In this document: piece after piece, positions 7,764-24,778 of the stretch
How positions within the stretch are numbered: position 1 is the first letter of the stretch
Layout of the letters: the number at the start of each line of letters is the position of its first letter
Source: Ruminococcus sp.
GTDB taxonomy: Bacteria > Bacillota > Clostridia > Oscillospirales > Ruminococcaceae
Assembly: GCA_045539715.1 (NCBI GenBank)
Contig: JAZQFV010000036.1
Span: forward strand, 41,992-73,991
Direction: 5' to 3'
Length of the DNA stretch: 32,000 nt
Program-made: the position numbers and the translations under genes
The notes under the pieces: model-generated
The model's database searches: none
What the model was told of the DNA's origin: nothing
Seen by the model: only the letters and a program-made list of their open reading frames with translations

Positions 7764-9107
7764 TCAATCCTCATCAACGATTGATTTGTAGTTTTCTTCC
7801 GCTTCCTTTTCCTTAGCCTGCTTATCGGCTTTTTTTGCGGCAAGTGAAGCACTTTTTGAGCCTTTTTTCATAAGCACAACTGCAACCACAACTGCTGCAA
7901 GAATAAGTCCAACAGCTATAATTGCAAAGGCAATGCCCTTGATATTCTTATCGGTATAGGAATATTCAAGCTTGTTATCCTTGGCATAATCAGCACCTGC
8001 TGAGCTTGAAAATACGCTTAATGAGAAGTTATCCGCAGGAGCATATGCACCCTCGGCATTGATATTATAGCCGAAAGCATTTGCACCGATTTCGGTAATG
8101 CTCTTTGGAATATTTATCTGTGAAAGGCTTTTGCAATCTACAAATGCACCCTCACCTACGGTAAGTGTACCCTCGGGAATAACCGCACGGGTAAGTGCTG
8201 TGCAGTTATAAAATGCACCGTCACCGATTTCCTTTAAAGTTGTTGGTAAATCAACTGTCTGCAATGCTGTACAGCATTTGAATGCAACGGGAGCAATCGT
8301 TTCAAGTCCCTCGGAAAAGTCAATATTTTTCAGCTTTACGCAATAACCGAAAGCGTCATCGCCGATATATGTGACAGAGGGCGGAATGAAAAGATTTTCA
8401 ATTCCTGCACAGACTGAGAAGGAGCCTGCCTCAATTGTTGTTACGCTGTCGGGAATACGCATATCCCCTGTAAGCTTTGTGGAGGCACGGACAATATTTG
8501 TCTTGCTCTTATTCATAAGAAGTCCGTCCTCAAAAATATAGCTTGCACATTTGCTTGCGTCAATATTTTCAATTGAACTGCACTCTGAAAAAGCCATAGG
8601 CTCAATTGCTGCAAGCTGTCCCGGAAGAACAACTTCTTTCAGGAATGAGCAGTTGTAGAATGCGTAGGATTCGATTGTATCAACAGCATCGGGAATTTCA
8701 ACCTTTTCAAGCTTTGTACAACCCATCAGCAAACCCTCGCTGATTGTCTTGATTTTCTTCGGCAAGGTAATTTCTGTAAGACCTGTACAGCCTGCAAAGG
8801 CACTATCACCGATTGAAGTTACCGTGTCGGGAATGTGCAGAGTTTTGATGTTGGGGCAGTTTGACAATGCCTTGTCGGCAATAGCTGTAATTGCATAGCC
8901 GTTGCGGAGTTCGGGAATTTCCTCAACAATAGCGTCCTGATTACAGCTTATGATTGTGTATGAGCCGTTTACCAACTCATAGCCGAAAGTACCGTCGGTA
9001 AGTGCCTCTCCGCCGTTATTCACACCAACAGCCAAAACGCTTGACGCTGTAATTGTAAGCAGAGAAAGACCTGCTGTTACAGCGGAAATAAGCTTATTAA
9101 TCTTCAT
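7764..9107 (-). CDS. BspA-type leucine-rich-repeat surface protein with C-terminal membrane anchor
   Basis: The track ORF starts at TTG 9128. ATG 9107 has GGAGG 9 nt upstream and gives MKINKLISAVTAGLSLLTITASSVLA (signal peptide). About 23-aa repeats follow the pattern IP.SVT.IG..AF..C..L..I. The C-terminal TM is IAFAIIAVGLILAAVVVAVVL, followed by a Lys/Glu tail ending ENYKSIVDED. Confidence 0.8.
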   Translation of the reverse strand: MKINKLISAVTAGLSLLTITASSVLAVGVNNGGEALTDGTFGYELVNGSYTIISCNQDAIVEEIPELRNGYAITAIADKALSNCPNIKTLHIPDTVTSIGDSAFAGCTGLTEITLPKKIKTISEGLLMGCTKLEKVEIPDAVDTIESYAFYNCSFLKEVVLPGQLAAIEPMAFSECSSIENIDASKCASYIFEDGLLMNKSKTNIVRASTKLTGDMRIPDSVTTIEAGSFSVCAGIENLFIPPSVTYIGDDAFGYCVKLKNIDFSEGLETIAPVAFKCCTALQTVDLPTTLKEIGDGAFYNCTALTRAVIPEGTLTVGEGAFVDCKSLSQINIPKSITEIGANAFGYNINAEGAYAPADNFSLSVFSSSAGADYAKDNKLEYSYTDKNIKGIAFAIIAVGLILAAVVVAVVLMKKGSKSASLAAKKADKQAKEKEAEENYKSIVDED

Positions 9108-11322
9108 CAGCTGAGTCCTCCGTTTCAATTATGCTTTCGTAATTTTCGGTTTTTTCAGCTTCTTTTTCGGCATCTTTTTTAGCCTTGATTTTTTCAGCAG
9201 CGGCAGCCTTACGCTTTTCGGAATCCTTTTCCTTTTTGCCTGCCTTGATTTTCTTGCCTGTGATAATTCCCACGATAAGAAGAATTACAGCGGCAGCTGC
9301 TCCGATAATTGCATATATAAAGTTCTTGTCAACATTTTTTCCTGCAACATATACCGTATCAAGAACAACGGGAATTCCGCAGTCTTTAGCGTACCGATGA
9401 GCAAGTGAATCTTTCTCAACGTACATCTTGAATCCCTCAATAACAGTATACGGCATAATAACATCTTCGCCAAGTTCAGCGTATGATTCCATATTAGCCT
9501 GAATGTCGTTGGCAAGTTCTTCGTCATAGTCATAACCGAAAGCGTATGCGGCAATTTCGTCAACGCTGTCGGGAACACGTATTCCCATCATACTTGAACA
9601 GCCGAGGAATGCATTTTTGTCAACCTTTTTAAGGGTATCGGGAAGAATAGTTTCCTCCAACGCTGTACAGCCCTCAAAGGCATATTCGCCGATAGTTTCA
9701 ACAGCTGTCAGCTTAACTTTTTTCAGATTTATGTTATAGTTGAAGCCCGATTTTGCAATTTCCTTGACGCTTTCGGGAGTTGTGAATTCCTCTCCGAGTT
9801 TCATTGCAGGATATGCAATAAGGCAGGTTTTATCCTTGTTATAGAGAACACCGTCAAGGGAGGAATATGCACCGTCACCCTCTGTTACGGTAATGCTCTG
9901 GAGATATGGCTGCATAAGGAACGGTTCTTCGCCCTTAATTTCCGTACAATTGCCCGAAATTGTGAGATGTTCCAGATGCTCGGGGAAAACATTCTCATCA
10001 ATTTTTGTAACTGTATCGGGGAGAACGATACTCTTTGACGAACAGCTTAAAAATGCACCATAGTAAATTGACGTAATCTTTACACCGTCAATTTCAGCAG
10101 GAACTTCTGCAACATCGGCAACCTCGTTGCAAATCGTAATCATTCCCTCGCCGTCAACAAGGGCATATTCATAAAAGCCTGAGAATTTTCTGTCAAGAGC
10201 CTCGTATGCCTTCTGCTTTTCGTATACACTTAATGTAACAAAAGTGAAGTCATTTGCAACGTCATATTCAGCGTCGGAGTCTGTTGCATAAGTTTCGGCA
10301 GCAGAACCGGGCTTACCTACAATAACAGTTCCGGGAATAACATTTTCTTTCTCGTCATAACCGATTGCACTGTAGTTGATTTTTGTAACCGACTCAGGAA
10401 TTACGATTTCGGTAATAGCTGTACCCTGAAAAGCACTCTGACCGATATAGTCGAGATTTTCGGGGAGAGTTACATTTTCAAGGGCGGAGCAGTTCATAAA
10501 TGCACCGAGTTCGATATTTATGGTATCGGGTGAAAATGCAACCTCGGTTAAAGCACGACATTCTGCAAAGCACATTGGCGGAATATCTGTAAGCTTTGTA
10601 TTGCTCATATCAATCTTTTCAAGCTTTTCATTGAAACTGAAACAATGACGATTGAGCGTTTTAATACTTTCGGGAATTTTGATTTCCTTTAATTGTGTGG
10701 AATAAATCGACGCAATACCGAGAGTTTCAACGCTATTGGGGATTTTGAAAACATCACCTTTTTTCATCATAGGATAGCAGATGAGAGTTTTCATATCCTT
10801 TGTATAAAGAACGCCGTCCTCTACCACATAGTTCTTATTATCCTCGCTTACAACAATTTCTTCAAGGAAAAGCAGAGCCGCAAATGGATTTGATTCGGGA
10901 ATATCTTTAATAGTTGCAGGAATTGTGATTTTCTTCAGATTTTTCTCGCTGAAAATATAATCGCTTATACCTGTAACAGTAATTCCGTCAATGCTTTCGG
11001 GAATTTCCATTTCCTCACTCTGGTCTTCATATTTGAGAATTGTAGCTGTACCGTCCTCACCTACAATATAGGTAAATCCGCCCGACTCAATCTCCTGTGG
11101 TTCTTCATCGGTTTCTTCTACAGTTTCATCCGCAGTTTCCTCTGTGGCTTCTTCCGTAACTTCCTCAGCTTCGCTTTCTTCCGACTCGTTCTCCGCAGTC
11201 AGAACTGTGACATCGCCGTTTTCTCCCTCATTTTCGGCAAATGCACAGATATTTGGAGCAGCAGTTGACGCTGCTATAAGCAAGCCCATAAGGGCTGCTG
11301 ATATTTTCTTATAATTTCTCAT
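9097..11322 (-). CDS. BspA-type leucine-rich-repeat surface protein with acidic N-terminal region and C-terminal membrane anchor
   Basis: The track ORF extends to 11406, which is upstream of the predicted promoter. ATG 11322 has GAGGGAA upstream and gives MRNYKKISAALMGLLIAASTAAPNICAFA (signal peptide). An acidic stretch ENESEESEAEEVTEEATEETADE precedes many LRR_5-like repeats. The TM is YAIIGAAAAVILLIVGIITG and the tail contains ENYESII. It overlaps the next gene by 11 nt. Confidence 0.8.
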   Translation of the reverse strand: MRNYKKISAALMGLLIAASTAAPNICAFAENEGENGDVTVLTAENESEESEAEEVTEEATEETADETVEETDEEPQEIESGGFTYIVGEDGTATILKYEDQSEEMEIPESIDGITVTGISDYIFSEKNLKKITIPATIKDIPESNPFAALLFLEEIVVSEDNKNYVVEDGVLYTKDMKTLICYPMMKKGDVFKIPNSVETLGIASIYSTQLKEIKIPESIKTLNRHCFSFNEKLEKIDMSNTKLTDIPPMCFAECRALTEVAFSPDTINIELGAFMNCSALENVTLPENLDYIGQSAFQGTAITEIVIPESVTKINYSAIGYDEKENVIPGTVIVGKPGSAAETYATDSDAEYDVANDFTFVTLSVYEKQKAYEALDRKFSGFYEYALVDGEGMITICNEVADVAEVPAEIDGVKITSIYYGAFLSCSSKSIVLPDTVTKIDENVFPEHLEHLTISGNCTEIKGEEPFLMQPYLQSITVTEGDGAYSSLDGVLYNKDKTCLIAYPAMKLGEEFTTPESVKEIAKSGFNYNINLKKVKLTAVETIGEYAFEGCTALEETILPDTLKKVDKNAFLGCSSMMGIRVPDSVDEIAAYAFGYDYDEELANDIQANMESYAELGEDVIMPYTVIEGFKMYVEKDSLAHRYAKDCGIPVVLDTVYVAGKNVDKNFIYAIIGAAAAVILLIVGIITGKKIKAGKKEKDSEKRKAAAAEKIKAKKDAEKEAEKTENYESIIETEDSADED

Positions 11323-11367
11323 TTTTCTATTCCCTCGTTTCAGAGTATACTTACTCAATTTTATTCT

Positions 11368-11396
11368 ATTATACCATATTCCCGTTGTAATTGCAA
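11368..11396 (-). promoter_or_regulatory. SigA-type promoter with extended -10 for the LRR operon
   Basis: The - strand reads TTGCAA (11396-11391), 17 nt ending in TGG, then TATAAT (11373-11368). Confidence 0.6.
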
Positions 11397-11470
11397 TAAA
11401 TTTCACTAATTTTTCATTGAAATGCCAACGTCTTTCGGCTCTTTGAAATTATTACAACACGTTAAAAATA

Positions 11471-11499
11471 TATCAATCTTTTTGTGCTTTTGGCATAAT
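11471..11499 (+). promoter_or_regulatory. candidate promoter of the phage-derived operon
   Basis: TATCAA, 17 nt ending in TGG, then CATAAT (11494-11499). The -35 is weak but the -10 is of the extended type. This is the best candidate I can see in the divergent intergenic region. Confidence 0.3.
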
Positions 11500-11552
11500 T
11501 TCGCCTGTTGACGATTGGTTAAAAAGGAGAAAATAAAAATTATTTTTCAATA

Positions 11553-11572
11553 TTCAACCATTTTTGGTTGAA
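11553..11572 (+). promoter_or_regulatory. perfect 8-bp inverted repeat (possible operator or leader hairpin) ahead of terS
   Basis: TTCAACCA-TTTT-TGGTTGAA lies between the candidate promoter and the terS RBS (GAGGAGG at about 11599-11605). Confidence 0.3.
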
Positions 11573-11616
11573 AAATGCCCCGATTCTGCCCATTAGTGAG
11601 AGGAGGTGTAACGCCA

Positions 11617-12102
11617 ATGGCTGAAAAAATTGATAAAAGGAGGTACGAATTCTGTTGTCAGTATGCCCTGTTAGGTAATGCCGAGGAGGCTGCCGTAAAA
11701 GCAGGCTATCCAAAATCTACGGCTCTGAAAAATGCTGCCGACTGCCTCAGCGACAATAACTGCCGTGAACTTATAGCCGATATGACAAATAAGCTTTCAC
11801 ACACTTCGGCTGTAAAGGCAGGTTTAAGACGCTTGGCTTTCGGTGAATGCAGCGACGCTGTCACTCTTGCCTTTGCTGATGAACTGCCGCCCCCCGAAAC
11901 AATCAGAAAAATGAATTTATTCAATGTTTCCGAAATCAAGCGGCTTAAAGGCGGCGGTATGGAAATCAAATTCTTTGACCGCCTAAAGGCTCTCGAAAAG
12001 CTCTATGAGCTTGAAACATCGGAAAATGGCAGTAATACGGCGGCAGGACTTATTGAAGCGCTGACAGCTTCTGCCCAAGGCGGTGACTATGAGGATAACT
12101 GA
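11617..12102 (+). CDS. terS: phage terminase small subunit
   Basis: The track ORF starts at 11575. ATG 11617 follows GAGGAGGTG. The N-terminus KRRYEFCCQYALLGNAEEAAVKAGYPKSTALKNAADCL is the helix-turn-helix pattern typical of Terminase_2-type small subunits. It lies directly upstream of and overlaps terL. Confidence 0.7.
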   Translation: MAEKIDKRRYEFCCQYALLGNAEEAAVKAGYPKSTALKNAADCLSDNNCRELIADMTNKLSHTSAVKAGLRRLAFGECSDAVTLAFADELPPPETIRKMNLFNVSEIKRLKGGGMEIKFFDRLKALEKLYELETSENGSNTAAGLIEALTASAQGGDYEDN

Positions 12103-13333
12103 ACTTTCCCCGAAACAAAGGCTTACGATAAACTGGTGGCTGACTGAAAAATATTCCCGTTACGATGCAATAATATGCGACGGTGCGGTGCGAAGCGGCA
12201 AAACTCTGTCAATGTCAATAGGCTTCGTCCTGTGGGCAATGAACAGCTTCAACGGAAGTGCATTTGCGGTTTGCGGTAAGACCGTGACTTCCCTGAGAAG
12301 GAATGTTATAACGCCCCTTTTGCCTGTGCTTGGCGGAATGGGAATGATATGCGAGGAAAAAGTCAGCCGCAATTACCTCGACATAAGCTTTAACGGCAGA
12401 AAAAACCGATTTTATTTTTTCGGCGGACGTGATGAAAGCTCGGCGGCACTCATTCAGGGTATCACTCTTTCGGGAGTATTCCTTGACGAGGTGGCACTTA
12501 TGCCACGTTCCTTTGTGGAACAGGCACTTGCACGATGCTCTGTAAACGGCTCGAAAATGTGGTTCAACTGCAATCCCGACAATCCCTCCCACTGGTTTTA
12601 CAATGAATGGATCAGAAAGACGGAGAGCAAAAATGCGTTGTATATCCATTTCACAATGGACGATAATCCGTCGTTGTCGGAGGAGTTGAAAAATCGCTAT
12701 AAAAGGCTGTATTCAGGGGCATTCTATGACCGCTATGTACTGGGGAAATGGACGGTATCAGACGGAACTGTTTATCCTATGTTTTCACGGGAAAAGCACA
12801 TCTTCTCAACTGCTCCCCATTGCGAAAAATACGTAATATCCTGCGATTACGGCACGGTCAATCCCTCCTCATTCGGATTATGGGGATATAGCGGCGGTGT
12901 GTGGTATCGGCTTCGGGAATATTATTACGATTCACGGAAAGAGGGACAGTCACGGACAGATGAGGAGCATTATGCGGCACTTGAAAGGCTTGCGGAGGGA
13001 TACAAAATCGAAAAGGTAATAATTGACCCGTCGGCGGCAAGCTTTATCGAATGTATCAAGCGGCACGGAAAATTTCACACGGAAAAGGCAGATAATGACG
13101 TAGTTGCAGGAATACGGCGAGTTGCGGCGGCTCTCAAAGAGGGCAGGCTGAAATTTCACGAATCCTGCGGCGATATAATCCGTGAATTCTCCCTCTATCG
13201 CTGGTCTGCAAAAGCAGGCACAGATGCTCCCATTAAGGAAAATGACCACGCTATGGACGATATGCGGTATTTTGTAACGGCTGTGACAAAGGAAAAATCC
13301 GATGATTTCTTTGTTATATCCATGAAAAGATGA
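12083..13333 (+). CDS. terL: phage terminase large subunit (PBSX-like type)
   Basis: 416-aa ORF starting at GTG 12083 or ATG 12089. Walker A is CDGAVRSGKT and Walker B is LSGVFLDEVALM. The C-terminal nuclease-like region ends in HAMDDMRY. It overlaps the terS stop codon. Confidence 0.85.
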   Translation: MTMRITELSPKQRLTINWWLTEKYSRYDAIICDGAVRSGKTLSMSIGFVLWAMNSFNGSAFAVCGKTVTSLRRNVITPLLPVLGGMGMICEEKVSRNYLDISFNGRKNRFYFFGGRDESSAALIQGITLSGVFLDEVALMPRSFVEQALARCSVNGSKMWFNCNPDNPSHWFYNEWIRKTESKNALYIHFTMDDNPSLSEELKNRYKRLYSGAFYDRYVLGKWTVSDGTVYPMFSREKHIFSTAPHCEKYVISCDYGTVNPSSFGLWGYSGGVWYRLREYYYDSRKEGQSRTDEEHYAALERLAEGYKIEKVIIDPSAASFIECIKRHGKFHTEKADNDVVAGIRRVAAALKEGRLKFHESCGDIIREFSLYRWSAKAGTDAPIKENDHAMDDMRYFVTAVTKEKSDDFFVISMKR

Positions 13334-13355
13334 AAAGGAGGTAATAACCGAAGTC

Positions 13356-14480
13356 ATGAAGCTATTCAAGAAAAAGACACCGAGAGCCGCCCCTGAATTA
13401 TACCATGCTTCAAGGGAAACAGGCACAATGCTAACCCTGCCCAATAACGCTTCACCCTTTGAAAAGGAGCTTTTCGACAGGCTGAGATATGCCGTACCTG
13501 TCATTGATGCGGCAATTATGAAAATTGTCCGACTTGCAGGCGGTTTCCACCTTGTATGCTCCGAAAAAGGTCATCAGAGGGAACTGGACAGCTTTTGCGA
13601 AAATGTTCCCGTGGGACTTCACGGCAAATCCATAAACTGCTTTGCGGACACATTTCTTGACAGCCTGCTCACCTACGGCAACGCTGTGGGGGAAATTGTA
13701 TTAAGCGAAAAAGACAGGGAAATTGCAGGGCTGTGGAATGGCGACAGCACACGGGTTATGGTAAGTGCAGGAGTAAATCCCTTTGACAGGCGGTATGCGG
13801 TGAGGTGCAATGACAACACCTGCAAGACAGTTCAGCACCCCGAAAGAATTGTATATGCCTCACTTACAGGGGGAAATTCACTTCTGAGGGGACTTCCTGC
13901 AATAAGCAGCATACTTCTGAGAATTTACCAATGTATCGGGCAGAATTATGACCGTGTGGGCAATGTGAGGTATGCGGTTACATACAAGCCCACAGAGGGT
14001 TCAGGGGAATTTATGCACTCCAAGGAAAGGGCTATGCAGATAGCCCGTGAGTGGTCTGACGGTATGAATTCCGCAAAATACGGACAGGTCAAGGACTTTA
14101 TTGCTGTGGGCGATGTGGATATTAAGGTAATCGGTGCTGAAAATCAGCTTATTGATACGGAAATCCCCGTCCGTCAGCTTTTGGAACAAATAGTTGCAAA
14201 GCTGTCAATTCCACCCTTTCTGCTTGGACTCAACTGGAGTTCAACGGAGCGAATGTCATCACAGCAGGCGGATATTCTCACATCAGAACTTGAATATTAC
14301 CGTCGGCTTCTCACCCCTGTTTTATGCGATATAGGAAATGCCTATCTGAAATCAAGGGGATTTGACGGCTACTGCTCTGTGGAGTGGGATAATATTAACT
14401 TACAGGACGAATCCGTGCTTGCGGAAACAAGACTTAACAACGCAAGGGCGGCAGAAATCGAAGCGAGATTAAACAATTGA
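13356..14480 (+). CDS. phage portal protein (small, 374 aa)
   Basis: It occupies the position right after terL. The size and composition fit a portal, as do the motif KLSIPPFLLGL and a C-terminal helical region. The assignment rests on context and general resemblance only. Confidence 0.6.
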   Translation: MKLFKKKTPRAAPELYHASRETGTMLTLPNNASPFEKELFDRLRYAVPVIDAAIMKIVRLAGGFHLVCSEKGHQRELDSFCENVPVGLHGKSINCFADTFLDSLLTYGNAVGEIVLSEKDREIAGLWNGDSTRVMVSAGVNPFDRRYAVRCNDNTCKTVQHPERIVYASLTGGNSLLRGLPAISSILLRIYQCIGQNYDRVGNVRYAVTYKPTEGSGEFMHSKERAMQIAREWSDGMNSAKYGQVKDFIAVGDVDIKVIGAENQLIDTEIPVRQLLEQIVAKLSIPPFLLGLNWSSTERMSSQQADILTSELEYYRRLLTPVLCDIGNAYLKSRGFDGYCSVEWDNINLQDESVLAETRLNNARAAEIEARLNN

Positions 14481-14497
14481 TTATGGAGGAAATTTAT

Positions 14498-15454
14498 ATG
14501 TATAATGATGTTAAACTTGAAAAGGGTATGTACAATTTCAGCGGAAAAAGCTTTACAGCGGCTCTGGAGGAACTTGACCCCTCCTCTGCATATGTGGGAA
14601 CGGAACTTGAGTCCCTTGACGCTTTTGAAAGACAGCTGAAACGATTCAATATCAGAGTAAGCGGCACAGACTGCGACTGCGTTGAAAAGTTCTTCACATC
14701 GGGAGAAACAGCTGTTCTTTTCCCCGAATTTGTAAAGAGATGTATTGCAAAGGGATTTGACGGAACTGTACTTTCATCTGTAACCGCTGTAAAAACCGTA
14801 TGCGAAAGCGGTCAGTATCTTGGCTGTATTCTTGATGATACGGCAGATTATGTATCAACTGCACAGACGGTAAAACTCCCCGAATCTGTTGTTACTGAGG
14901 GGGAAACTGCGGTTGTACTTGAAAAGTATGGCAGACTTATCAACGCATCTTATGAGGCGGTGAGAAAGCAGCGACTTGATGTATTCGGCGTTATGCTCCG
15001 TGGAATCGGCGTAAAGCTTGCGGTATCGGTTGTTAAAAAGGCTATGACAGTTCTTGCGGAATCTGCACAGTCAATCTCTGCTACATCTCTCACCTATGCT
15101 AAGCTTGCGGAACTTTACGGCAGCTTTGACTGCTTTGATATGACAACGGTTGTGGCAAATCCTGCTGACGCTTCAAAGATTGCGGCAATGGAACAGCTTT
15201 CAGATACAAAGGTATCAGCTGAGGGAAAAATGCTGCTTCCATTCGGCTCTGAACTTGTCAAGACTTCTGCACTTCCACAGAATACAATTCTCGGACTTGA
15301 CAAGAATTTTGCCCTTGAATTTATCACAAGTTCAGGACTTGTAATGGAAACTGACAAGCTCATTGACAGACAGCTTGACAGCATTACTGTGTCAATTACC
15401 TGCGGATTCAGAAAGATTATGCCCGAAGCTGTAAGAAAAATTGTAATTTCATAA
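14498..15454 (+). CDS. major capsid protein (HK97-fold type)
   Basis: ATG 14498 has GGAGGA 7 nt upstream; the track starts at TTG 14477. The 318-aa product has capsid-like segments LFPEFV, LEKYGRLINASYEAVRKQRLDV and a C-terminal DSITVSITCGFRKIMPEAV. It is followed by a strong terminator-like structure, as expected for the most abundant product. Confidence 0.6.
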   Translation: MYNDVKLEKGMYNFSGKSFTAALEELDPSSAYVGTELESLDAFERQLKRFNIRVSGTDCDCVEKFFTSGETAVLFPEFVKRCIAKGFDGTVLSSVTAVKTVCESGQYLGCILDDTADYVSTAQTVKLPESVVTEGETAVVLEKYGRLINASYEAVRKQRLDVFGVMLRGIGVKLAVSVVKKAMTVLAESAQSISATSLTYAKLAELYGSFDCFDMTTVVANPADASKIAAMEQLSDTKVSAEGKMLLPFGSELVKTSALPQNTILGLDKNFALEFITSSGLVMETDKLIDRQLDSITVSITCGFRKIMPEAVRKIVIS

Positions 15455-15456
15455 TC

Positions 15457-15541
15457 AGCCGTCAGCCATTAGCCGTTAGCCCATAGCTAAAGGCTGAAAG
15501 CTGACGGCTAATGGCTCTGTTTTAGGCTAATGGCTCTGTTT
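15457..15541 (+). terminator. branched hairpin / partial terminator with duplicated 3' arm between capsid and protease genes
   Basis: AGCCGTCAGC (15457-66) pairs with GCTGACGGCT (15500-09). Alternatively GCCATTAGCC (15465-74) pairs with GGCTAATGGC (15506-15), followed by TCTGTTTT. There is an inner hairpin at 15472-15494. The unit GGCTAATGGCTCTGTTT occurs twice (15506-22 and 15525-41). Confidence 0.5.
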
Positions 15542-15557
15542 AAAAAAAGGAGGAAAA

Positions 15558-16382
15558 ATGGATAAAACTACCCTTGAAAAAATCAATAAATTCACCCGAC
15601 GTGAACTCAAAGAGGAGGAACTCTACACCTTTTCCGTTATCCTCTGCGATAACGAAATTGACCGTGATTGTGAACGCTTTTCCGATGCTGCACTCGAAAC
15701 GCTGAAATCAATGTTCATCGGCAAAACAGGTATTTTCGACCACAAGCCCAGCACATCAAATCAGACTGCAAGAATTTTCGATACGGAAATTATTACCGAT
15801 GAAAGCCGCACCACTAAAAATAATGAGCCGTATAAATACCTGAAAGCCTCCGCCTATATGGTTCGCACAGAGGATAACAAAAATCTCATTGCGGAAATTG
15901 ACGGCGGAATTAAAAAAGAAGTCAGCATTTCCTGCTCGGCGGCAAAAAGAATCTGCTCCCTCTGCGGCAGAGAAAAATCACAGGGCAGCTGCGGTCATAT
16001 AAACGGTAAAAGCTATGGCGGACGAATTTGCCACACAATTCTCGATGATGTTTCAGATGCCTATGAATGGAGCTTTGTAGCAGTTCCTGCACAAGTAAAT
16101 GCAGGAGTTACAAAAAAATACAGCGAAAACGGCTGTGAGAAAATGCCCTCGGCGGCGGAATTGCCCGATGTGGAAAAGCTTTGCCGTGAAATCCGTCAGC
16201 TTGCATTTTTCAGCGGTGGTGTAAAGGCGGCTGAAAAGGCTGAATTATCAATTGAGGGCAAATCCTTAACCGAACTTGAAGCGTTAAAAAAAGGCTATGA
16301 AGCTACCGCCCACAGCAAGGAATTGGAAGTTCAGCTTTCGGCAGATACACAGAAAGAGGATATGTCACGTTTCAGAATATAG
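15558..16382 (+). CDS. prohead protease (HK97 gp4-like) with inserted Cys4 motif and C-terminal coiled-coil (scaffold-like) tail
   Basis: AGGAGG sits 5 nt upstream of the ATG. The motifs EIDRDCERFS..AL, GKTGIFDHKPS, EVSISCS and EWSFVAVPAQ follow the S78 prohead protease pattern with His/Ser candidates. There is a CSLCG..GSCGH insertion. The tail AEKAELSIEGKSLTELEALKKGYE looks like a coiled coil. Confidence 0.6.
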   Translation: MDKTTLEKINKFTRRELKEEELYTFSVILCDNEIDRDCERFSDAALETLKSMFIGKTGIFDHKPSTSNQTARIFDTEIITDESRTTKNNEPYKYLKASAYMVRTEDNKNLIAEIDGGIKKEVSISCSAAKRICSLCGREKSQGSCGHINGKSYGGRICHTILDDVSDAYEWSFVAVPAQVNAGVTKKYSENGCEKMPSAAELPDVEKLCREIRQLAFFSGGVKAAEKAELSIEGKSLTELEALKKGYEATAHSKELEVQLSADTQKEDMSRFRI

Positions 16383-16394
16383 GAGATGATTATT

Positions 16395-16745
16395 ATGAAT
16401 ATGACTAAGGTAAAATCACTTTTCAAGCTTTTTTCGGGAGATATCTGCACAGCGGAGCACGAACCTTTAATTGACCTTGCAGTATTTGAAGTCGAAAGAA
16501 TGATTTCCGAAACTGCCGACAGAGAGGACCCACGGCTTGATTTTCTCTGTGCTGCAATTGCAAACTACCGCTATTATCAGGCATTGACCGCACAGGACCG
16601 CTCTGAATTTACATACAGCGGAAAGGTCATAAAGGACAACGGCGGAAAAATCCTCTCCTTTGCCGAAGGTCTTTTAAGGGGATATTACCGCCTTTGCAGC
16701 GATATTATCAAGGATTCGGATTTGATTTTCCTCGTCGTTGTGTAA
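16395..16745 (+). CDS. putative head-tail connector/adaptor protein
   Basis: ATG 16395 is 9 nt after AGGAG; the track starts at 16386. The 116-aa helical protein sits in the position and has the size of gp6/gp15-type adaptors. This is a weak, context-based call. Confidence 0.4.
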   Translation: MNMTKVKSLFKLFSGDICTAEHEPLIDLAVFEVERMISETADREDPRLDFLCAAIANYRYYQALTAQDRSEFTYSGKVIKDNGGKILSFAEGLLRGYYRLCSDIIKDSDLIFLVVV

Positions 16746-16757
16746 AGGAGGCAGGTT

Positions 16758-17165
16758 ATGATTGAGATACTCAGACAGATAAGACAGGCTCTCGATGATA
16801 AGGGGGTAGTCAATGTCTGTCCCTCCTATGACGCTATGCCTGTCCGTGATAAAGGGGATTATTTTGTTGTAATAGGTGCAGGTGAATATGAAGCCCTTTC
16901 CCCTATCCATTCCGAAACGAAAATTTATATCCCTGTGAAATGCGACGTGAAATTCACAGTATACGCTCCTCCGCAGCTGTCACAGGAACAGCTTTACGGT
17001 TATTACCGCAGCAGCCTTGAAAGCACAATTGACAGCCTATGCGGATTGAACAGCCGTCTGAAAAGCATTACCACATCTTATGACGCTAAACTGCGGAAAC
17101 AGACTCTTACGGCAGTTCTGAAAATAAGCTGTATGAAAACAATTGAAAAGGAGGCGGCGGAATAA
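16758..17165 (+). CDS. putative neck / tail-terminator-like protein
   Basis: AGGAGG is upstream. The 135-aa product has an N-terminal helix followed by beta-rich segments (MIEILRQIRQALDDKGVVNV..YFVVIG). This resembles DUF3168/gpU-type neck proteins by pattern only. Confidence 0.3.
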   Translation: MIEILRQIRQALDDKGVVNVCPSYDAMPVRDKGDYFVVIGAGEYEALSPIHSETKIYIPVKCDVKFTVYAPPQLSQEQLYGYYRSSLESTIDSLCGLNSRLKSITTSYDAKLRKQTLTAVLKISCMKTIEKEAAE

Positions 17166-17552
17166 ATGGAAATCAGCATAAAAAAACCATTTCCTGTAAA
17201 AATCGGAGCAATTATATTGTACTGCGAAAAAATGACATTGCAGACAAAAACTGATATTTCAACAACTCCCACAGTTACAGGAACTCCCTATTATACAAAC
17301 AAATGCCGCAAGCCCACACGAATCTCTTTCACAGGCAGGATTTACGACAAGGAAAATCCAATGATGTATGCGGCTCTTGCAAACAATATCAACGGCACAG
17401 AAAATTATCAGATTATCTATAAAAAATATAAATTCATCAACTGCATAATAACGGGAATAAACGTAATCGACAGCGGCGAGGACTTCATTGAACTTACCAT
17501 AGAAGCCACTACTCTTAATATTTCGTATTTTGTTAGTGAGGTAGAAGAATGA
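17166..17552 (+). CDS. phage structural protein, possibly P2 GpU-like (hub-associated)
   Basis: The ATG abuts the preceding TAA. The product is 128 aa. The segment ISFTGRIYDKENPMMYAALANNINGTENYQIIYKKYKFINCIITGINV..IELTIEATT parallels the F.L.G...L..L...G....I.....G.FVI.S...I.F.L.L layout I recall for about 130-aa GpU-family proteins. Confidence 0.3.
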   Translation: MEISIKKPFPVKIGAIILYCEKMTLQTKTDISTTPTVTGTPYYTNKCRKPTRISFTGRIYDKENPMMYAALANNINGTENYQIIYKKYKFINCIITGINVIDSGEDFIELTIEATTLNISYFVSEVEE

Positions 17553-18472
17553 ATACTTACTGGCTTAAATTTAAATTAAGGGACGGCACGGAACAATATT
17601 ACAACAAGTGCGTTTCCTTTTCCTATGTAAAAGAAGCCTTTACACCCTATACAACGCTGAAAGCTATAGTGTACGGTGATGATATTCCCGACGATATAAC
17701 CGCTGTCAGGTTAGGCGTCGGCGGCTATAATGTACATTACGGTTTCGTGGACAGCTATAAGGTGACGAAAAGAAACGGCGTAACCTGCGGAGTTGCTATA
17801 TCAAGAGGTTTTACTGCCCTGCTTACAGAAAATCAATTGCCGCCGGGAATGTATTCCAATATTACTTTCAACAAGCTTTTTGACGAGTATATAACTTTCC
17901 CCGATATTGAACACGAAAAAAACACACAGAACAGCTATATCTATGTGAAAAAGGGTGCGTCTATGTGGGACGGCATAGCAAACCTCTCATATAAGATTGC
18001 AGGAGTTCATCCGTATATTTCGGGGAATAACTTAGTTAAGATAAGTATGCCGTCAAACCCGAAGAAAATACAATGCAGCAAGCAGCAAGTCATTTCTATC
18101 GGTACGGAAATTATGACAAGGCGAATGGTAAGCAAGTACAATATGGCTGATATTGAAGGGGAATACGGCACATTTTCCGCTGAATCGGAAAAAGCCATTG
18201 AAAGAGGCATTATACGACAGCGGCATTTTGACCTTGACGAAAGATTTCTCAACAATCCCGATTTGGCTTGTCAATACAGAATGATGATGTCGGAGAGGGA
18301 TTACAAACGATATTTCATCACTATTCTTAATTATTTCGGACAGGATATTAATGATATTCTCATAAGTGATGAATTCGGCAGCCGAAGAATAAACGCAATC
18401 AGAATTAACGGCAGCAAAAACGGAATATCTGTTGAAATGAGTATGTATGACAGTTTCCCTCCTGTTGAGTAA
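17549..18472 (+). CDS. phage structural protein, possibly gpD/XkdQ-like baseplate hub
   Basis: It has an ATGA start/stop overlap with the previous gene and encodes 307 aa. The N-terminal beta region contains HYGFVDSY. The C-terminal YFITILNYFGQDINDILISDEFGSRRINAIRINGSKNGISVEMSMY resembles the C-terminal layout of XkdQ/late-control-D-type hub proteins, from memory and not verified. Confidence 0.3.
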   Translation: MNTYWLKFKLRDGTEQYYNKCVSFSYVKEAFTPYTTLKAIVYGDDIPDDITAVRLGVGGYNVHYGFVDSYKVTKRNGVTCGVAISRGFTALLTENQLPPGMYSNITFNKLFDEYITFPDIEHEKNTQNSYIYVKKGASMWDGIANLSYKIAGVHPYISGNNLVKISMPSNPKKIQCSKQQVISIGTEIMTRRMVSKYNMADIEGEYGTFSAESEKAIERGIIRQRHFDLDERFLNNPDLACQYRMMMSERDYKRYFITILNYFGQDINDILISDEFGSRRINAIRINGSKNGISVEMSMYDSFPPVE

Positions 18473-18500
18473 ACCAATGATTTTCTTTGGAATATAATAT

Positions 18501-18534
18501 AAGGGCATCTCTAAATGGTTTTTGAGATGCCCTT
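18501..18534 (+). terminator. 11-bp hairpin closing the phage-derived operon (no U-run)
   Basis: AAGGGCATCTC-taaatggttttt-GAGATGCCCTT lies 29 nt after the last phage ORF and 17 nt before the feoA start codon. Without a 3' U-tract, read-through into feoA is plausible. Confidence 0.4.
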
Positions 18535-18551
18535 AATACAAGGAGGAGATT

Positions 18552-18782
18552 ATGAAATCCGAAAGAAAGCTCAATGATTTAAATGAGGGCGAAAAGGGAA
18601 TTATAGTTTCTGTTATGCCCTCTGATATATCGGAAAGGCTGAAAGAACTTGGATTTACAGCAGGCACATTGGTGGAATGCCGATGCCGCAGTTTTTCAGG
18701 TGACCCCTCGGCTTATTCCGTCAAGGGAACTGTTATAGCCTTACGCAAAAATGACGCTGAAAGCGTCGTTATTAATGCGTAA
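18552..18782 (+). CDS. feoA: FeoA-domain protein (orphan; no feoB in the window)
   Basis: 76-aa ORF with AGGAGG upstream. The pattern L.DL..GEKG.I..V......RL.ELGF..G..V......GDP....V.G..IALR...A..V.I is typical of FeoA/SH3-like domains. Confidence 0.8.
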   Translation: MKSERKLNDLNEGEKGIIVSVMPSDISERLKELGFTAGTLVECRCRSFSGDPSAYSVKGTVIALRKNDAESVVINA

Positions 18783-18807: not shown

Positions 18808-18841
18808 GAACGGTGGAATTTTTTTCTGCCGTTCATTTTTT
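18808..18841 (+). terminator. rho-independent terminator after feoA
   Basis: GAACGGTGG (18808-16) pairs with CTGCCGTTC (18826-34), including two G.U pairs. The loop is 9 nt and ATTTTTT follows. Confidence 0.7.
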
Positions 18842-18884
18842 GTACAATGATATTTTGTAGCCCGTTTTAAATATATCAGCACAC

Positions 18885-18917
18885 AAAAGAAAAGACGGTA
18901 ATCGTTAAGACTACCGC
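18885..18917 (-). terminator. weak terminator after the CPCC gene
   Basis: The - strand reads CGGTA-gtcttaacgat-TACCG followed by TCTTTTCTTTT. The stem is short. Confidence 0.35.
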
Positions 18918-18933
18918 CCACATTTCTTAATTC

Positions 18934-19191
18934 TTAATTAACCTTCTCATCTTCAAGAGGTTCACGGACAAAGGGAAGAAATTCTTCCATACAAGCTCCG
19001 TATTTCTTGTAATTCTCCCTCGCCTCATTAAGGGAAACTCTGTTCGCTCCGTCAGCTAAATCAGGGTCACGATACATTGCTTTATCGTCCTCCCAAAAGC
19101 ATACAGGGCATATGTCATAGCTGCCCTCCTCCCCTAATGTGCGGTTTCCGCAGCAGGGGCAGATGTATTTCTCAATAATTTCCATATCCAT
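18934..19191 (-). CDS. CPCC-family cysteine-rich small protein
   Basis: The 85-aa product has CPCCG..T and CPVCFWEDD motifs characteristic of the Cys-rich CPCC family. Confidence 0.75.
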   Translation of the reverse strand: MDMEIIEKYICPCCGNRTLGEEGSYDICPVCFWEDDKAMYRDPDLADGANRVSLNEARENYKKYGACMEEFLPFVREPLEDEKVN

Positions 19192-19198
19192 TTTTCAC

Positions 19199-19936
19199 CT
19201 ACTTTTTCTGTAAAAATTCTTCGTATCTATCACAGATTTCCTCTGTTTCACCAAAGGCAATCTGTTTTCCCTTTTCAATCCACAGCACCTTTGTCGCCAT
19301 TCGTCTTATCTGTGCAAGGCTGTGTGAAACGAGAAGTGTAGTCGTTCCGCTGTTAATTACTTCAAGCATCTTTGTTTCGCTTTTTACACGGAACGCTCCG
19401 TCACCTACGGAAAGCACCTCGTCAAGTATGAGTATTTCGGGATTTACAAGACAGGCAATTGAAAAAGCAAGTCTTGACCTCATTCCCGAAGAAAGATGAC
19501 TGAATTTTCTTTCCTGAAATTCTTTAAGCTCAGCAAATTCAATTATGCTGTCGTATGTCTGATTCATAAATTTCCTTGTATATCCAAGCAATGCACCACG
19601 GAGAAATGTGTTTTCCCTTACCGTCAAATCTGGGTCAAAGCCTGTTCCAAGTTCAAGAAGTGAGGCAATACTGCCATTTACCGCCATTGTTCCCTTTGTA
19701 GGCCGCATAATTCCCGATATTACCTTGCAGAGAGTGGATTTTCCTGCACCGTTAGTGCCGATAATTCCAAGCAAATCCCCCTCCTCAATAGAAAAGGTAA
19801 TGCCGTCCAATGCCATAAATTCCTTTTGTTCGTATGTGCCTTTAAGCTTTTGAATTATTACATCTTTCAGCCCTGTGGTAGAAAAATCTCCCGTTATATA
19901 AGATACGGAAATATTATTAAGTTCAATTTTCTTCAT
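19199..19936 (-). CDS. tagH: ABC transporter ATP-binding protein, teichoic-acid/polysaccharide export type
   Basis: Walker A is GTNGAGKST, the signature is LSSGMRSRLAF and Walker B is ILILDEVLSVGD. It is paired with an ABC-2 permease and a TagF-like transferase. Confidence 0.8.
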   Translation of the reverse strand: MKKIELNNISVSYITGDFSTTGLKDVIIQKLKGTYEQKEFMALDGITFSIEEGDLLGIIGTNGAGKSTLCKVISGIMRPTKGTMAVNGSIASLLELGTGFDPDLTVRENTFLRGALLGYTRKFMNQTYDSIIEFAELKEFQERKFSHLSSGMRSRLAFSIACLVNPEILILDEVLSVGDGAFRVKSETKMLEVINSGTTTLLVSHSLAQIRRMATKVLWIEKGKQIAFGETEEICDRYEEFLQKK

Positions 19937-19950
19937 TTTTTACCTCCGCA

Positions 19951-20739
19951 TCAGATGTAATACATAAATTTATAATTGTACTTCTTGTAAATCGCCATTC
20001 CGGTTATCAGCATAATCACAGCATAGCCGAAACAAAGAAGGTGATGCCACGCAGGAGGAATTGTTCCCTCAAGTACAATGCTTCGGAAATAAGCTATATA
20101 GCTGTAAACGGGATTTGCAAAAAATAACAGCTGAATTTTTTCGGGATATACGCTTGTTGTATAGAATATTGCTGAAACGTACATAAGCAGCTGTGTGAAA
20201 ATATCATAGAGATACTGCACGTCCTTGAATATTACAAACAATGCCGACAAAATAAATCCCACACCGATATTGAACAAAACAAGACATATAACGGGATAAA
20301 TCAGCAGCAGGAAACTCCACGAAAAGGTTATTCCGTCAATCGCCACGAAAAGGAAATAGATTATCAGCGTCAGCCCGAAATTTATACAGGCTGACACTTC
20401 CTTTGAAATCATAAACAGATATTTAGGCACGTTGATATTCTTGATTATCTCCGCATTCTGCATAAGTGCGTGCATACCGCCGATTGTAGCATCTTTGTAA
20501 AAGGAGAAAATGAGGTTTCCCGAAAACAGATAGATGATATAATGCTCCATATCACTTCCGAAAAATCTCGTAAATACAACCGCCATAACCGCAAGCTGCA
20601 TAAGGGGCGACAGAACACTCCAGAACATACCCAAAACTGTACGCTTATATTTCTTCTTAAAATCACGTTTTACCAGTTCCGAAAAAAGGAACTGATATTT
20701 TTTTATCTGATGAATTTTTTCTTTTATACTTTCTAACAT
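19951..20739 (-). CDS. tagG: ABC-2 type permease, teichoic-acid/polysaccharide export type
   Basis: The 262-aa product has about six hydrophobic spans. The N-terminal LVKRDFKKKYKRTVLGMFWSVLSPL is typical of ABC-2/TagG/Wzm permeases. It lies 14 nt upstream of the ATPase gene. Confidence 0.8.
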   Translation of the reverse strand: MLESIKEKIHQIKKYQFLFSELVKRDFKKKYKRTVLGMFWSVLSPLMQLAVMAVVFTRFFGSDMEHYIIYLFSGNLIFSFYKDATIGGMHALMQNAEIIKNINVPKYLFMISKEVSACINFGLTLIIYFLFVAIDGITFSWSFLLLIYPVICLVLFNIGVGFILSALFVIFKDVQYLYDIFTQLLMYVSAIFYTTSVYPEKIQLLFFANPVYSYIAYFRSIVLEGTIPPAWHHLLCFGYAVIMLITGMAIYKKYNYKFMYYI

Positions 20740-20749
20740 TCTCTGCTCC

Positions 20750-22450
20750 TTAACTTTTATTTTCTCGGACAGAACGGAGATTTTTCAGCGTATCTTCCGA
20801 TTTGTCAGATTTTTCGTAAATATCCATATCAATAAGACGCAGGGAACGATATTGCGGGTCATCGGGATAATCCGCATTGTTTTTATTGCGGCGGTAAACT
20901 CCTGAAATTCTGAAACCTATTTCAAGCTTTCCGTCAGAACCTATATACTCCGCAGGTACGTCAAAAATGAAATGTTTCTTTTTAGTGTCGGTGATTTCAG
21001 CATTGCAGACAGTTCTGCCGTTTGCAAGAACTTTCACGCTGAGTTTTTGCTGTTTTCCTTCAAGAAGCGGCTCATAGTAAAGCTGCATTGAAAATCCCTT
21101 ATCCCACTTAGGCACAAAAAATCTGAGAAAGGCTTTTTTTCGGACAATCCAGCGTCCCTCAAACGTGGGCATTTCAACGCTGTAAACCTCAACTTCGGGA
21201 TACCTCGCAAGGCTTACCGTAGTATTAATCGGCATCTGATAAAGCTTTTTCACATCATTTTTTGCCGCCGAAAGATATTCCAGAAAGCGTTTGCGGAAAT
21301 CTCCGTTATAGTAGAAAAATGCGTCACGTTTTTCCTTTTCATCGGGTTTTAGCTTAAAGCCTGTATTGTGGTAATCCTCCAGCTTATCCACACACTGTTC
21401 AACGGTATCAACAACATTGAAAATATACTTCCTCTTTGAACCGTATGGGTCTGCAAGGTCAGTTTTATGACCGTATTTTATGCAGTCCTCGCCGTCGGGA
21501 ATATTGAGGAATATCGAGGGTTTGTGCTGAAACCACATTTCAAAGCACATTGAGGAATAGTCCGTAATGAGAATTGCCGAACTCTTTTTTGCATCGGCAA
21601 TTTCTTCTTCTTTAAGGATTTTTACGCCCTCAAGAAGTCCGCTTCCGCAAGCCTGCAAAACGCTGTGATGAAGTGCAACTTTCAACGTATAACCGTTTTC
21701 CTCAACGAAATTTTTAAATCGGGGATTTTCAAGAAGTCCCCGTATTGCCTTTACATAAACCGATTCTTTAAGCTCCGATTCCTCCATATAGGCGAGATAA
21801 CGGCGGTGGGTGATATATATGAAAATTGACTTTTCGGAAATGGCATTGTCAGCACTCAGCAAATCCCAGCGGAAAAGACCGTTTATAATGAGATTTTTCT
21901 CCTCATAACAGCCACGTTCCATAAAAATCCGCTTTTCAAAATCGTTGGAAATCATAAGCTTATCAAAGAGAAAAGAGCTGTATGACTCCTGCGAAATGAA
22001 ATCGTCCTTAAAAAAAGTTATGCCGTGCTGGGTGAAAACGGAAAAAACATAGGGACTGCGTTTTACAGCCTCGGTTATTCCAAGACGCAGAGAATGAAGC
22101 ACCTGAAATCCACCGCATATGAATTTCACCGTTTTGAAAAGTTCTTTCAGCACAAGTGCGAATTCTCTGATATTTTCGGGAGAATAAGCAATGATGTTTT
22201 CGCCGTATTCCGCCTTTATTTTTTCATAATCCGCACACTTTTCGTTGATTATATAATAAGGCTCGAAATGCTCTCTGCCGTTTTCGTAAATATACTTGAA
22301 CAACTCAAATTCGTCCTGCGGAGATGTATCCTCCTCTATAATAAAGTCACAGCAGATGACCTTATTCCTCTGCGTTTCAAGCTGCATTGCCATTGCATAG
22401 TCGTGGGCGATAAAACGTCTGAAAATACTGTCAGTTATTTTGCTCAGCAT
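20750..22450 (-). CDS. CDP-glycerol glycerophosphotransferase family protein (TagB/TagF-like) with about 170-aa C-terminal extension
   Basis: The track ORF starts at TTG 22531 with no RBS. ATG 22450 follows GAAAGGAA. The motif LITDYSSMCFEMWFQHKPSIF is the Glyphos_transf signature region. The C-terminal about 170 aa is beta-rich and unassigned. Confidence 0.75.
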   Translation of the reverse strand: MLSKITDSIFRRFIAHDYAMAMQLETQRNKVICCDFIIEEDTSPQDEFELFKYIYENGREHFEPYYIINEKCADYEKIKAEYGENIIAYSPENIREFALVLKELFKTVKFICGGFQVLHSLRLGITEAVKRSPYVFSVFTQHGITFFKDDFISQESYSSFLFDKLMISNDFEKRIFMERGCYEEKNLIINGLFRWDLLSADNAISEKSIFIYITHRRYLAYMEESELKESVYVKAIRGLLENPRFKNFVEENGYTLKVALHHSVLQACGSGLLEGVKILKEEEIADAKKSSAILITDYSSMCFEMWFQHKPSIFLNIPDGEDCIKYGHKTDLADPYGSKRKYIFNVVDTVEQCVDKLEDYHNTGFKLKPDEKEKRDAFFYYNGDFRKRFLEYLSAAKNDVKKLYQMPINTTVSLARYPEVEVYSVEMPTFEGRWIVRKKAFLRFFVPKWDKGFSMQLYYEPLLEGKQQKLSVKVLANGRTVCNAEITDTKKKHFIFDVPAEYIGSDGKLEIGFRISGVYRRNKNNADYPDDPQYRSLRLIDMDIYEKSDKSEDTLKNLRSVRENKS

Positions 22451-22578
22451 TGTCAATTTCCTTTCTATTGCACCGCCAATTATACCTTGCAAAAAAACAA
22501 AAGCAGAAAAATTTACTTTGCTTGACGGCAAGGTTCAGTCGGTTGAGCAATAAATCATTTACCATTATTATCTTCAAT

Positions 22579-22607
22579 ATTATAGCATATATGTGAACTT
22601 ATGTCAA
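22579..22607 (-). promoter_or_regulatory. consensus SigA promoter of the tagF-like/tagGH operon
   Basis: The - strand reads TTGACA (22607-22602), 17 nt, TATAAT (22584-22579). Confidence 0.65.
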
Positions 22608-22672
22608 TATTCATACATATTGAGCATTCTTTTCAAATGATAAGGCAGCCTCCACAATAGGGGCTTATACGC

Positions 22673-22702
22673 AAAAAAGGACGGCAGAATAATCCACCGC
22701 CC
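22673..22702 (-). terminator. rho-independent terminator after the purD-membrane protein unit
   Basis: The - strand reads GGGCGGTGG-attatt-CTGCCGTCC followed by TTTTTT, 13 nt past the stop at 22715. Confidence 0.7.
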
Positions 22703-22714
22703 TTAACTGAAATA

Positions 22715-23467: not shown

Positions 23468-23476
23468 AAGCCCTCC

Positions 23477-24757: not shown

Positions 24758-24778
24758 TGGTTTTTCCTCCTTTTGGGG

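Follow-up and report, generated by a model that had tools for sequence, protein, structure and literature searches.

What does a set of phage head genes do in a bacterial chromosome when no integration, replication or lysis genes accompany it and only fragments of a tail remain? The question is raised by a 32,000-nucleotide stretch of a Ruminococcus sp. genome (GenBank assembly GCA_045539715.1, contig JAZQFV010000036.1, positions 41,992 to 73,991 of the forward strand), referred to here as the window. On its + strand, nine phage-derived open reading frames (ORFs) occupy positions 11617-18472, a unit of 6.9 kb that encodes, in order, the small and large terminase subunits (terS and terL), a portal protein, a capsid protein, a prohead protease, two neck proteins, a protein with a tail-tube fold and a tail hub. 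This phage-derived unit is fixed in the chromosome and vertically inherited, and very probably it is a domesticated, functional head-plus-hub module that descends with the chromosome. With less assurance, the evidence favours a domesticated particle module resembling a gene transfer agent (GTA), which makes DNA-carrying particles; that it also mediates gene transfer is held with lower confidence still.

Ten genes succeed one another on the + strand between 11617 and 18782: the nine of the unit and a feoA-like gene, the sole credible + strand gene of the window besides them. The surroundings are read on the - strand. An earlier note on this DNA had described the nine ORFs as the only + strand block, and its account of the tight gene spacing also holds: the junctions between the longest ORFs, from terS to ORF9, are -20, 22, -4, 103, 3, 12, 0 and -4 nt. 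The GGAGG-type ribosome-binding sites (RBSs) that it reported are seen upstream of terS, portal, ORF5, ORF7 and ORF8, and also of the major capsid protein (MCP) gene and ORF6 if their starts are corrected. Gene calls in a near-identical strain back later starts for terL (12089), MCP (14498, giving 318 aa) and ORF6 (16395, giving 116 aa). The note's calls for terS, terL, portal, capsid and protease stand, the protease with moderate support, but the last two genes, which it took for small structural proteins, are tail parts. Its label of a capsid/neck-only operon therefore falls, given the tail hub encoded by ORF9 and the tube fold of ORF8: the unit consists of head, neck, one tube-fold protein and hub. 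The window indeed lacks genes for an integrase, a repressor, replication, lysis, a sheath, a tape measure or fibres, as the note had said, and scanning its unannotated ORFs against PHROGs gave no phage function; the note's further statement that a tail tube gene is lacking has to be modified for ORF8.

How the unit persists is indicated by a comparison with the locus L170 of the near-identical strain. Across the block, the synonymous divergence (dS) is 0.073 and the ratio of non-synonymous to synonymous divergence (dN/dS) is 0.064, from 102 synonymous and 24 non-synonymous differences, an unsaturated comparison; six host genes in the flanks give a dS of 0.0745 and a dN/dS of 0.045. The equal dS of block and flanks implies that the block is as old in this lineage as the chromosome around it. 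The earlier note had proposed asking whether dN/dS lies well below 1, and it does. Compared with the more distant species locus L003, each of the nine genes has a dN/dS of 0.06-0.15, inside the range of the flanks, with dS near saturation. The identity of purD tracks that of terL, portal and capsid (Spearman 0.86, in the 12 loci with purD nearby). The genes are also intact, full-length and free of stops in 82/82 loci for portal, 76/78 for terL, 75/78 for MCP and 68/71 for ORF9, the few exceptions being alignments that extend over the upstream stop codon. Equal dS, low dN/dS, co-divergence with purD and intactness together argue that the unit is neither a remnant nor a mobile satellite.

The unit is widespread. 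When each species was represented by a single genome, a scan for relatives of the portal protein gave hits in at least 579 genomes, of which the best 80 loci were analysed. These belong to Ruminococcus, Porcipelethomonas and other Oscillospiraceae, and include R. flavefaciens FD-1 and YAD2003; the best among them come from Ruminococcus metagenome-assembled genomes and R. flavefaciens strains. Carriers with complete genomes include, besides FD-1 and YAD2003, Ruminococcus sp. YRD2003 and Porcipelethomonas ammoniilytica. According to tblastn and ORF maps, practically all of the 80 loci carry the nine-gene unit in colinear order, ending at a hub of ∼305 aa that is usually followed by a strand switch to host genes. 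No gene for a sheath, tube, tape measure or baseplate wedge was found in the window or in the 80 genome loci. Across 65 species, clustering of the genes within 5 kb of the unit returned no recurrent integrase, replication, lysis or fibre gene; feoA is the one recurrent neighbour and the others are all housekeeping genes. Comparison of synteny, another check proposed in the earlier note, shows that close relatives share the local gene order of the window (purD, a membrane protein, feoA, CPCC and an ABC exporter) apart from one inversion. Relative to L003 (window positions 1-11400 and 18900-24800 compared), the stretch between the operon and the glycerophosphotransferase gene, both included, has the opposite orientation, so that purD and the adjoining membrane-protein gene lie downstream of the operon here and upstream of it in L003.

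The portal and capsid version of Porcipelethomonas ammoniilytica (L063) is found in at least 1000 assembled contigs in a cluster look-up, which makes the unit a very common one among gut samples that have been sequenced. In the L063 portal cluster, one member is labelled ‘serine/threonine protein phosphatase’, an obvious misannotation. A related unit is carried by six human-faecal GenBank records named ‘UNVERIFIED: Bacteriophage sp.’, namely L001 (MT835508.1) and five other MT83xxxx records, where its neighbours on either side are ordinary genes of bacteria (Rnf, ApbE, ABC exporters, MarR, oleate hydratase). These contigs are bacterial chromosome and not phage genomes. They would fit host DNA in preparations of virus-like particles, an interpretation given no weight here because the records were selected for viral hallmark genes.

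Identities are established for seven of the nine genes. TerS (11617-12102, 161 aa, a length also called in L170 and L005) matches PF03592 Terminase_2 at 1.7e-12 and phrog_51. TerL (12083-13333; 414 aa from the probable start at 12089) belongs to the PBSX family, matching TIGR01547 at 5.9e-66 with 223 bits against a cutoff of 105; PF03237, PF04466, PF17289 and phrog_2 (1.4e-52) match as well. The Walker A motif GAVRSGKT and the Walker B motif VFLDEV named in the earlier note are both present, and an RNaseH-like nuclease forms the C-terminus. The portal protein (13356-14480, 374 aa) is assigned by phrog_30703 at 4.8e-128, with PF04860 at 7.2e-07, below its gathering score. The MCP (14477-15454) is of an HK97-fold family, matching phrog_3922 at 3.9e-62 and PF25209 at 7.9e-10. 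Profiles of MCP and portal found no sequence relative in the PDB.

ORF5 (15558-16382) matches phrog_16951 at 1.6e-91, a family whose function is unannotated and the only match that ORF5-9 returned in Pfam, NCBIfam and PHROGs; the profiles of ORF5-8 found nothing significant among PDB sequences. It shares 40% identity with the annotated protease of the Flavonifractor phage Cormatin (hhalign probability 99.9%) and 41% over 63 aa with the protease/scaffold of 0305phi8-36. Its sequence includes a Cys/His insert (CSLC...C.H...C.H), its C-terminal part is helical and scaffold-like, and its counterpart in distant relatives fills the slot between portal and capsid that is usual for a protease. These likenesses identify ORF5, with moderate confidence, as a prohead protease with a scaffold-like tail. 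A match to Pfam XkdF (E 0.047) appeared in just one of 31 members, ORF5 and 30 relatives, and was not used as evidence. The order portal, capsid, protease, described as atypical in the earlier note, is confirmed. More distant relatives retain portal, protease, capsid, and the capsid-before-protease order is therefore a derived, later swap restricted to the Ruminococcus clade.

ORF6 (16386-16745) is a probable head-tail adaptor by position only, and aligns by hhalign at 97-98% probability with the first gene after the capsid gene in the tailed relatives L152, L157 and L165. ORF7 (16758-17165, 135 aa), a neck protein by position only, possibly of the tail-terminator or completion type, aligns at 76-90% probability with the gene that in L152 and L154 lies immediately ahead of the sheath gene, and with its positional equivalent in L130. 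The neck roles of both are inferred from such correspondences. A PHROG scan of 44-47 orthologues of ORF6 and ORF7 gave single-member noise only, and hhalign found no signal between ORF6-8 and the neck, tube and Dit proteins of SPP1 and Cormatin.

For the last two genes, predicted structures are informative. The AlphaFold2 model of ORF8 (17166-17552, 128 aa; pLDDT 69.7) has only tail-tube proteins, Hcp, tube initiators and Dit proteins among its top Foldseek matches in the PDB (E 2e-4, TM-score 0.55). A sequence profile ranks ‘tube initiator gp018’ first in the PDB (E 0.11, not significant but concordant), and the LysM/DNA_circ_N proteins encoded ahead of the hub in relatives align weakly with ORF8 through their N-domain (probability 43%, E 2.5e-4). 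ORF8 is probably a tube initiator, of the type of the XkdP or Mu gp43 N-domain without the LysM part. ORF9 (17549-18472, 307 aa) has no sequence-family match. Its model, built from 26 homologues, reaches a pLDDT of 89.7 and a predicted TM-score (pTM) of 0.85, and matches 3d37, 3cdd, 1wru and the pyocin R2 hub in the PDB (E 5e-19, TM-score 0.72). It superposes on the 43-kDa tail proteins of Neisseria and MuSo2, Mu gp44, T4 gp27, VgrG and 80alpha Tal; in the viral library BFVD the matches are Mu gpP and P2 protein D. With 25-31% identity to the hub-position genes of relatives that bear a sheath and baseplate, ORF9 is a tail or baseplate hub of the Mu gp44, P2 gpD, T4 gp27 and XkdQ type.

The relatives also suggest where the unit came from. 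In IMG/VR, viral predictors flag 181 related contigs. L152 (10753-17394) encodes after its head genes a sheath (PF04984/PF17482), a protein with LysM and DNA_circ_N domains and a hub, and further a Mu gp45-like spike, a sheath initiator, Baseplate_J and Mu gp48. L165, L166, L156 and the faecal contig L002 are without a sheath and retain the LysM initiator, hub and baseplate, while contigs of the L130 type and the whole Ruminococcus clade end at the hub. No long tape-measure gene was found in these graded relatives. Because it is the more distant relatives that have the fuller tails, the tail must have been cut down in the clade of the window. The lineage is thus of the PBSX/Mu myovirus type, descended from a kind of ancestor with sheath and baseplate, and the pattern suggests that its tail was lost stepwise. 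With a complete contractile tail at one end, forms that have a baseplate but no sheath in between, and the hub alone at the other end, the series is an unusually clear record of a phage being pared down in domestication.

Expression of the unit appears to be organised as an operon with its own control region. At 11500-11616 (+ strand), an anchored alignment of 45 distinct loci shows ∼110 nt 5' of terS to be conserved, a putative control region and leader. It includes a -35-like TTGACG (11508-11513), an A/T tract, a -10-like CAATAT box (11548-11553) and a GGAGG RBS. In most loci, an imperfect inverted repeat, TTTGTGCA-N4-TACAAA, occupies the -35 position, and a second leader repeat lies around TTATGAACGG. 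A 7-bp inverted repeat, TTCAACC-N6-GGTTGAA, is found at 11553-11572. Its positions are paired in 84% of cases, with 22 double-sided changes compared with 10.2±2.2 in shuffles and above all 500 of them; one pair is mismatched in 13 of the 45 loci. Across the loci, the upstream motif takes the form TTTGTGCA-N4-TACAAA ... CAATAT ... TCAAYG-N6-CRTTGA. The 7-bp repeat may be an RNA hairpin or a palindromic operator, and the conserved leader may mark a dedicated regulator.

Within the operon, the 103-nt gap 3' of the capsid gene (15455-15557, + strand) contains a long hairpin, two copies of the 17-nt direct repeat GGCTAATGGCTCTGTTT and then the RBS of ORF5. The structure ascribed to this gap in the earlier note is borne out by folding, with a minimum free energy (MFE) of -42.2 kcal/mol (z = -4.67; 0/200 shuffles as good). 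Among relatives the gap varies from about 20 to 290 nt. It is at this MCP-ORF5 junction that the capsid/protease gene swap occurred. The hairpin may set the stoichiometry of capsid to minor proteins.

The 3' end of the transcript probably lies beyond the unit. The earlier note had ended the block at a hairpin before feoA. That hairpin (18501-18534, + strand; 12-bp stem, MFE -29 kcal/mol, z = -5.85) has no U tract, was not reported by a terminator scan and is not a canonical terminator. The sole canonical terminator lies 3' of feoA at 18808-18844 (+ strand), where an 11-bp stem is followed by a T run (-15.8 kcal/mol, z = -3.5), the likely end of the transcript. An Rfam search with the leader, the MCP-ORF5 gap and the ORF9-feoA hairpin found no family, with only sub-threshold ‘drum’ and L20-leader matches. 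With no U tract in the first hairpin and the only terminator past feoA, the latter is probably the tenth gene of the transcript. This feoA-like stand-alone gene (18552-18782, + strand, 76 aa) matches PF04023 at 4.1e-15 and has its own GGAGG RBS. It lies directly downstream of the unit in 21/65 loci by strict clustering and in 35/87 by tblastn, where the duplicate places L003/L004 and L005-L007 are counted; in L003, L005, L039 and L070, for example, a FeoA-domain gene directly follows the hub gene on the same strand. It evolves at about the rate of ORF6-9 (69-70% identity to L003). No feoB was found in the window or near feoA of the related loci. The gene may be a recruited tenth member or a mere neighbour.

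The flanks of the operon consist of host genes: a GH5 cellulase with dockerin, two BspA-type surface proteins with leucine-rich repeats, an ABC exporter, a glycerophosphotransferase, purD, purH, an IMP cyclohydrolase and an RHS/Imm51 pair. They point to a cellulolytic Ruminococcus host. Between purD and purH, two ORFs of 311 and 358 aa (24779-26822; GC content 0.34-0.36) have no family matches; L170 has only a 103-aa gene in this interval, and the two ORFs look like a recent insertion. The genes for an RHS-repeat protein and, after it, an Imm51 immunity protein lie at 28430-30130 and likely form a polymorphic toxin-immunity pair unrelated to the operon.

How might such a module work? Particle formation, DNA content and transfer are all inferred here. 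Transcription would start at the conserved promoter and leader 5' of terS and continue past ORF9, and probably past feoA as well, as far as the terminator at 18808-18844. A procapsid would be assembled from portal, capsid protein and the protease/scaffold ORF5, with the hairpin 3' of the capsid gene perhaps increasing the ratio of capsid to minor proteins. TerS and the PBSX-family TerL would then pack DNA into the capsid, and ORF6 and ORF7 would seal the portal. An ORF8 ring and an ORF9 trimer would form a tail pared down to its two end pieces, with neither a sheath nor a tube polymer, a tape measure or a baseplate wedge. Unlinked loci would have to supply receptor binding, the spike and lysis of the cell, as in RcGTA and FpGTA. 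The particles would be small capsids with a tail stump and, because the unit is without replication and excision genes, would hold mostly host DNA.

Of the three readings offered in the earlier note, a GTA-like locus, a satellite-type capsid module and a remnant, the first is favoured here and the other two find little support. An inert PBSX-like prophage remnant, with its tail and lysis genes deleted and decay yet to set in, is highly improbable. Deletions did happen, as the relatives with fuller tails show, and no partner loci are known; but the nine genes are intact and colinear across species that share 55-90% capsid and portal identity, dN/dS is about 0.06, like that of the housekeeping flanks, the promoter and leader are conserved, and translational coupling and RBSs are kept. 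Recent horizontal spread, as a source of artefact in these measures, is disfavoured by the equal dS of block and flanks. A helper-dependent element like the capsid-forming phage-inducible chromosomal islands (cf-PICIs), which would supply its own heads and neck and rely on a myovirus, whether resident or infecting, for the distal tail, fibres and lysis, is very unlikely. Such satellites do resemble the unit in terS, terL, portal, protease, capsid and connectors, a preprint (10.64898/2026.07.08.737213) reports a capsid-forming-satellite-like element of unknown kind in Pelethomonas, and viral predictors flag the unit in the IMG/VR contigs. Mobility genes are nevertheless missing, with no integrase, regulator or primase-replicase within 5 kb across the 65 species or, for the window, within 10 kb; the block shares the dS of the host flanks and co-diverges with purD; local synteny is kept across species; and the unit itself encodes a tube-fold protein and a hub, whereas a cf-PICI borrows the complete tail.

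A more serious alternative, rather unlikely on present evidence, accepts that the unit is domesticated and makes particles but holds that it was selected for a role other than gene transfer. Programmed DNA release for biofilm or nutrients, interference with phages by competing for or mis-packaging their DNA, or a role linked to the FeoA-like protein would all be of this kind. Constraint and vertical inheritance do show only that some function is kept. PBSX, with the same TerL family, packages DNA without known delivery (PMC12946183), the hub-only tail with no spike or fibres nearby makes delivery doubtful, and the linkage to feoA is recurrent. Yet TerS, TerL and portal are constrained like the capsid protein, so the packaging of DNA has been kept; killing in the manner of PBSX requires a contractile sheath, absent in the clade; and no specific alternative is supported by the data.

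The reading as a GTA-like particle module is thus preferred, and several points weigh against it. The unit is known here from genes alone, and strong constraint indicates that some function is kept and not which one. ORF6 has no match in Pfam, PHROG or PDB, ORF7 has no family or PDB match, and the assignment of ORF8 as an initiator depends on a model with a pLDDT of 70 and on weak profile matches. That the capsid is ‘too small to carry itself’ is an assumption. Within a reach of ∼10 kb around each locus, partner loci for spike, receptor binding, lysis and a regulator were not found. Ruminococcus callidus and Pelethomonas, the taxa in which packaging has been reported, are not among the names in the L063 portal cluster look-up.

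Random packaging of 4.6-8.9 kb of host DNA in capsids is reported to be common in Ruminococcaceae and Oscillospiraceae (PMC12946183, Nat Commun 2026). The same study describes a 4.6-kb ‘very short GTA’ in Ruminococcus_C callidus, its genes not identified, and in Pelethomonas, GTA production was inferred from coverage, with no gene cluster assigned (preprint 10.64898/2026.07.08.737213, July 2026). Packaging genes in these families are known only for Faecalibacterium. A tentative extension, which we regard as possible and short of probable, is that the unit is the genetic basis of the ∼4.6 kb GTA-type packaging in gut Ruminococcus and of similar signals in Oscillospiraceae. It would then represent a new type of particle, with a myovirus-derived capsid and a contractile tail reduced to terminator, tube-initiator ring and hub, which selection maintains in hundreds of fibre-degrading species from rumen and gut. 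A literature search found no published description of the unit. It offers a concrete candidate, open to knockout, for the source of particles in Ruminococcus and Oscillospiraceae, and R. flavefaciens FD-1 and YAD2003 are cultivable carriers. Were the unit active, Ruminococcaceae and Oscillospiraceae would have a second, independent GTA lineage, and the cellulose degraders of rumen and gut a major route of gene flow.

How does the unit compare with known systems? Three of the features by which a GTA is judged are present: chromosomal fixation with vertical inheritance, no genes for replication, integration or excision, and purifying selection on all genes of the cluster. For the packaging of random host DNA in pieces shorter than the cluster, the support is indirect and comes from the literature on related taxa. 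RcGTA of the Alphaproteobacteria is likewise a phage-derived cluster from head to hub, fixed in the chromosome, under purifying selection and vertically inherited, with the remaining functions at other loci, as is expected here. There is no detectable sequence relationship between the two, judging from searches with MCP and portal against the PDB, which holds RcGTA virion structures. The RcGTA cluster keeps the tube, tape measure, Dit, hub and megatron, whereas the unit has only a tube-fold protein and the hub. The cf-PICIs have a head and connector gene set similar in size and composition, but integrase, AlpA and primase-replicase are missing from the unit, nothing indicates that it is mobile, and it encodes a hub of its own; it lacks every defining cf-PICI feature.

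The unit and the defective prophage PBSX of Bacillus subtilis share the TerL family and the gene order xtmA/xtmB, portal, protease, capsid and neck through to XkdP-like and XkdQ-like proteins, and distant relatives of the unit keep a sheath, LysM initiator, hub, spike, sheath initiator, Baseplate_J and gp48 of the PBSX/Mu type. Both are chromosomal elements with no means of self-propagation. The clade of the window differs in that its sheath, tube, tape measure, spike and baseplate wedge are gone, so that the unit cannot act as a contractile tailocin. Neither xre/xpf regulators nor lysis genes adjoin it, and it spans hundreds of species, whereas PBSX is confined to a narrow group.

A further parallel in organisation is FpGTA of Faecalibacterium prausnitzii, which has a ten-gene, 10.5-kb head operon and a separate 5.5-kb operon for baseplate, fibre and lysis, and forms 40 nm particles with no visible tails (PMC12946183). 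Each is a compact Ruminococcaceae operon that opens with terS, terL and portal, continues with a maturation or scaffold gene, the capsid gene and a few structural genes, and sits among host genes without integration or replication functions. In FpGTA the other structural genes and the lysis genes lie at a second locus, and the particles look tail-less or short-tailed and carry short random host DNA. The components differ. FpGTA has a capsid of the ‘N4-gp56 family’, a Prp-type protease between portal and capsid and a TerL of the ‘Terminase-like family’ (supplement file 4), in contrast with the PBSX-family TerL, PF25209/phrog_3922 capsid and HK97-like protease of the unit, whose capsid has no match to the N4 capsid family in NCBIfam. 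The unit counts nine genes in 6.9 kb against ten in 10.5 kb, ends in a myovirus-type hub and is known from genes alone. Homology with FpGTA was rejected on the published annotations of FpGTA only, which place it in a different phage lineage. The unit is an independent lineage with a vestigial myovirus tail, which resembles FpGTA in its logic and is not a member of it.

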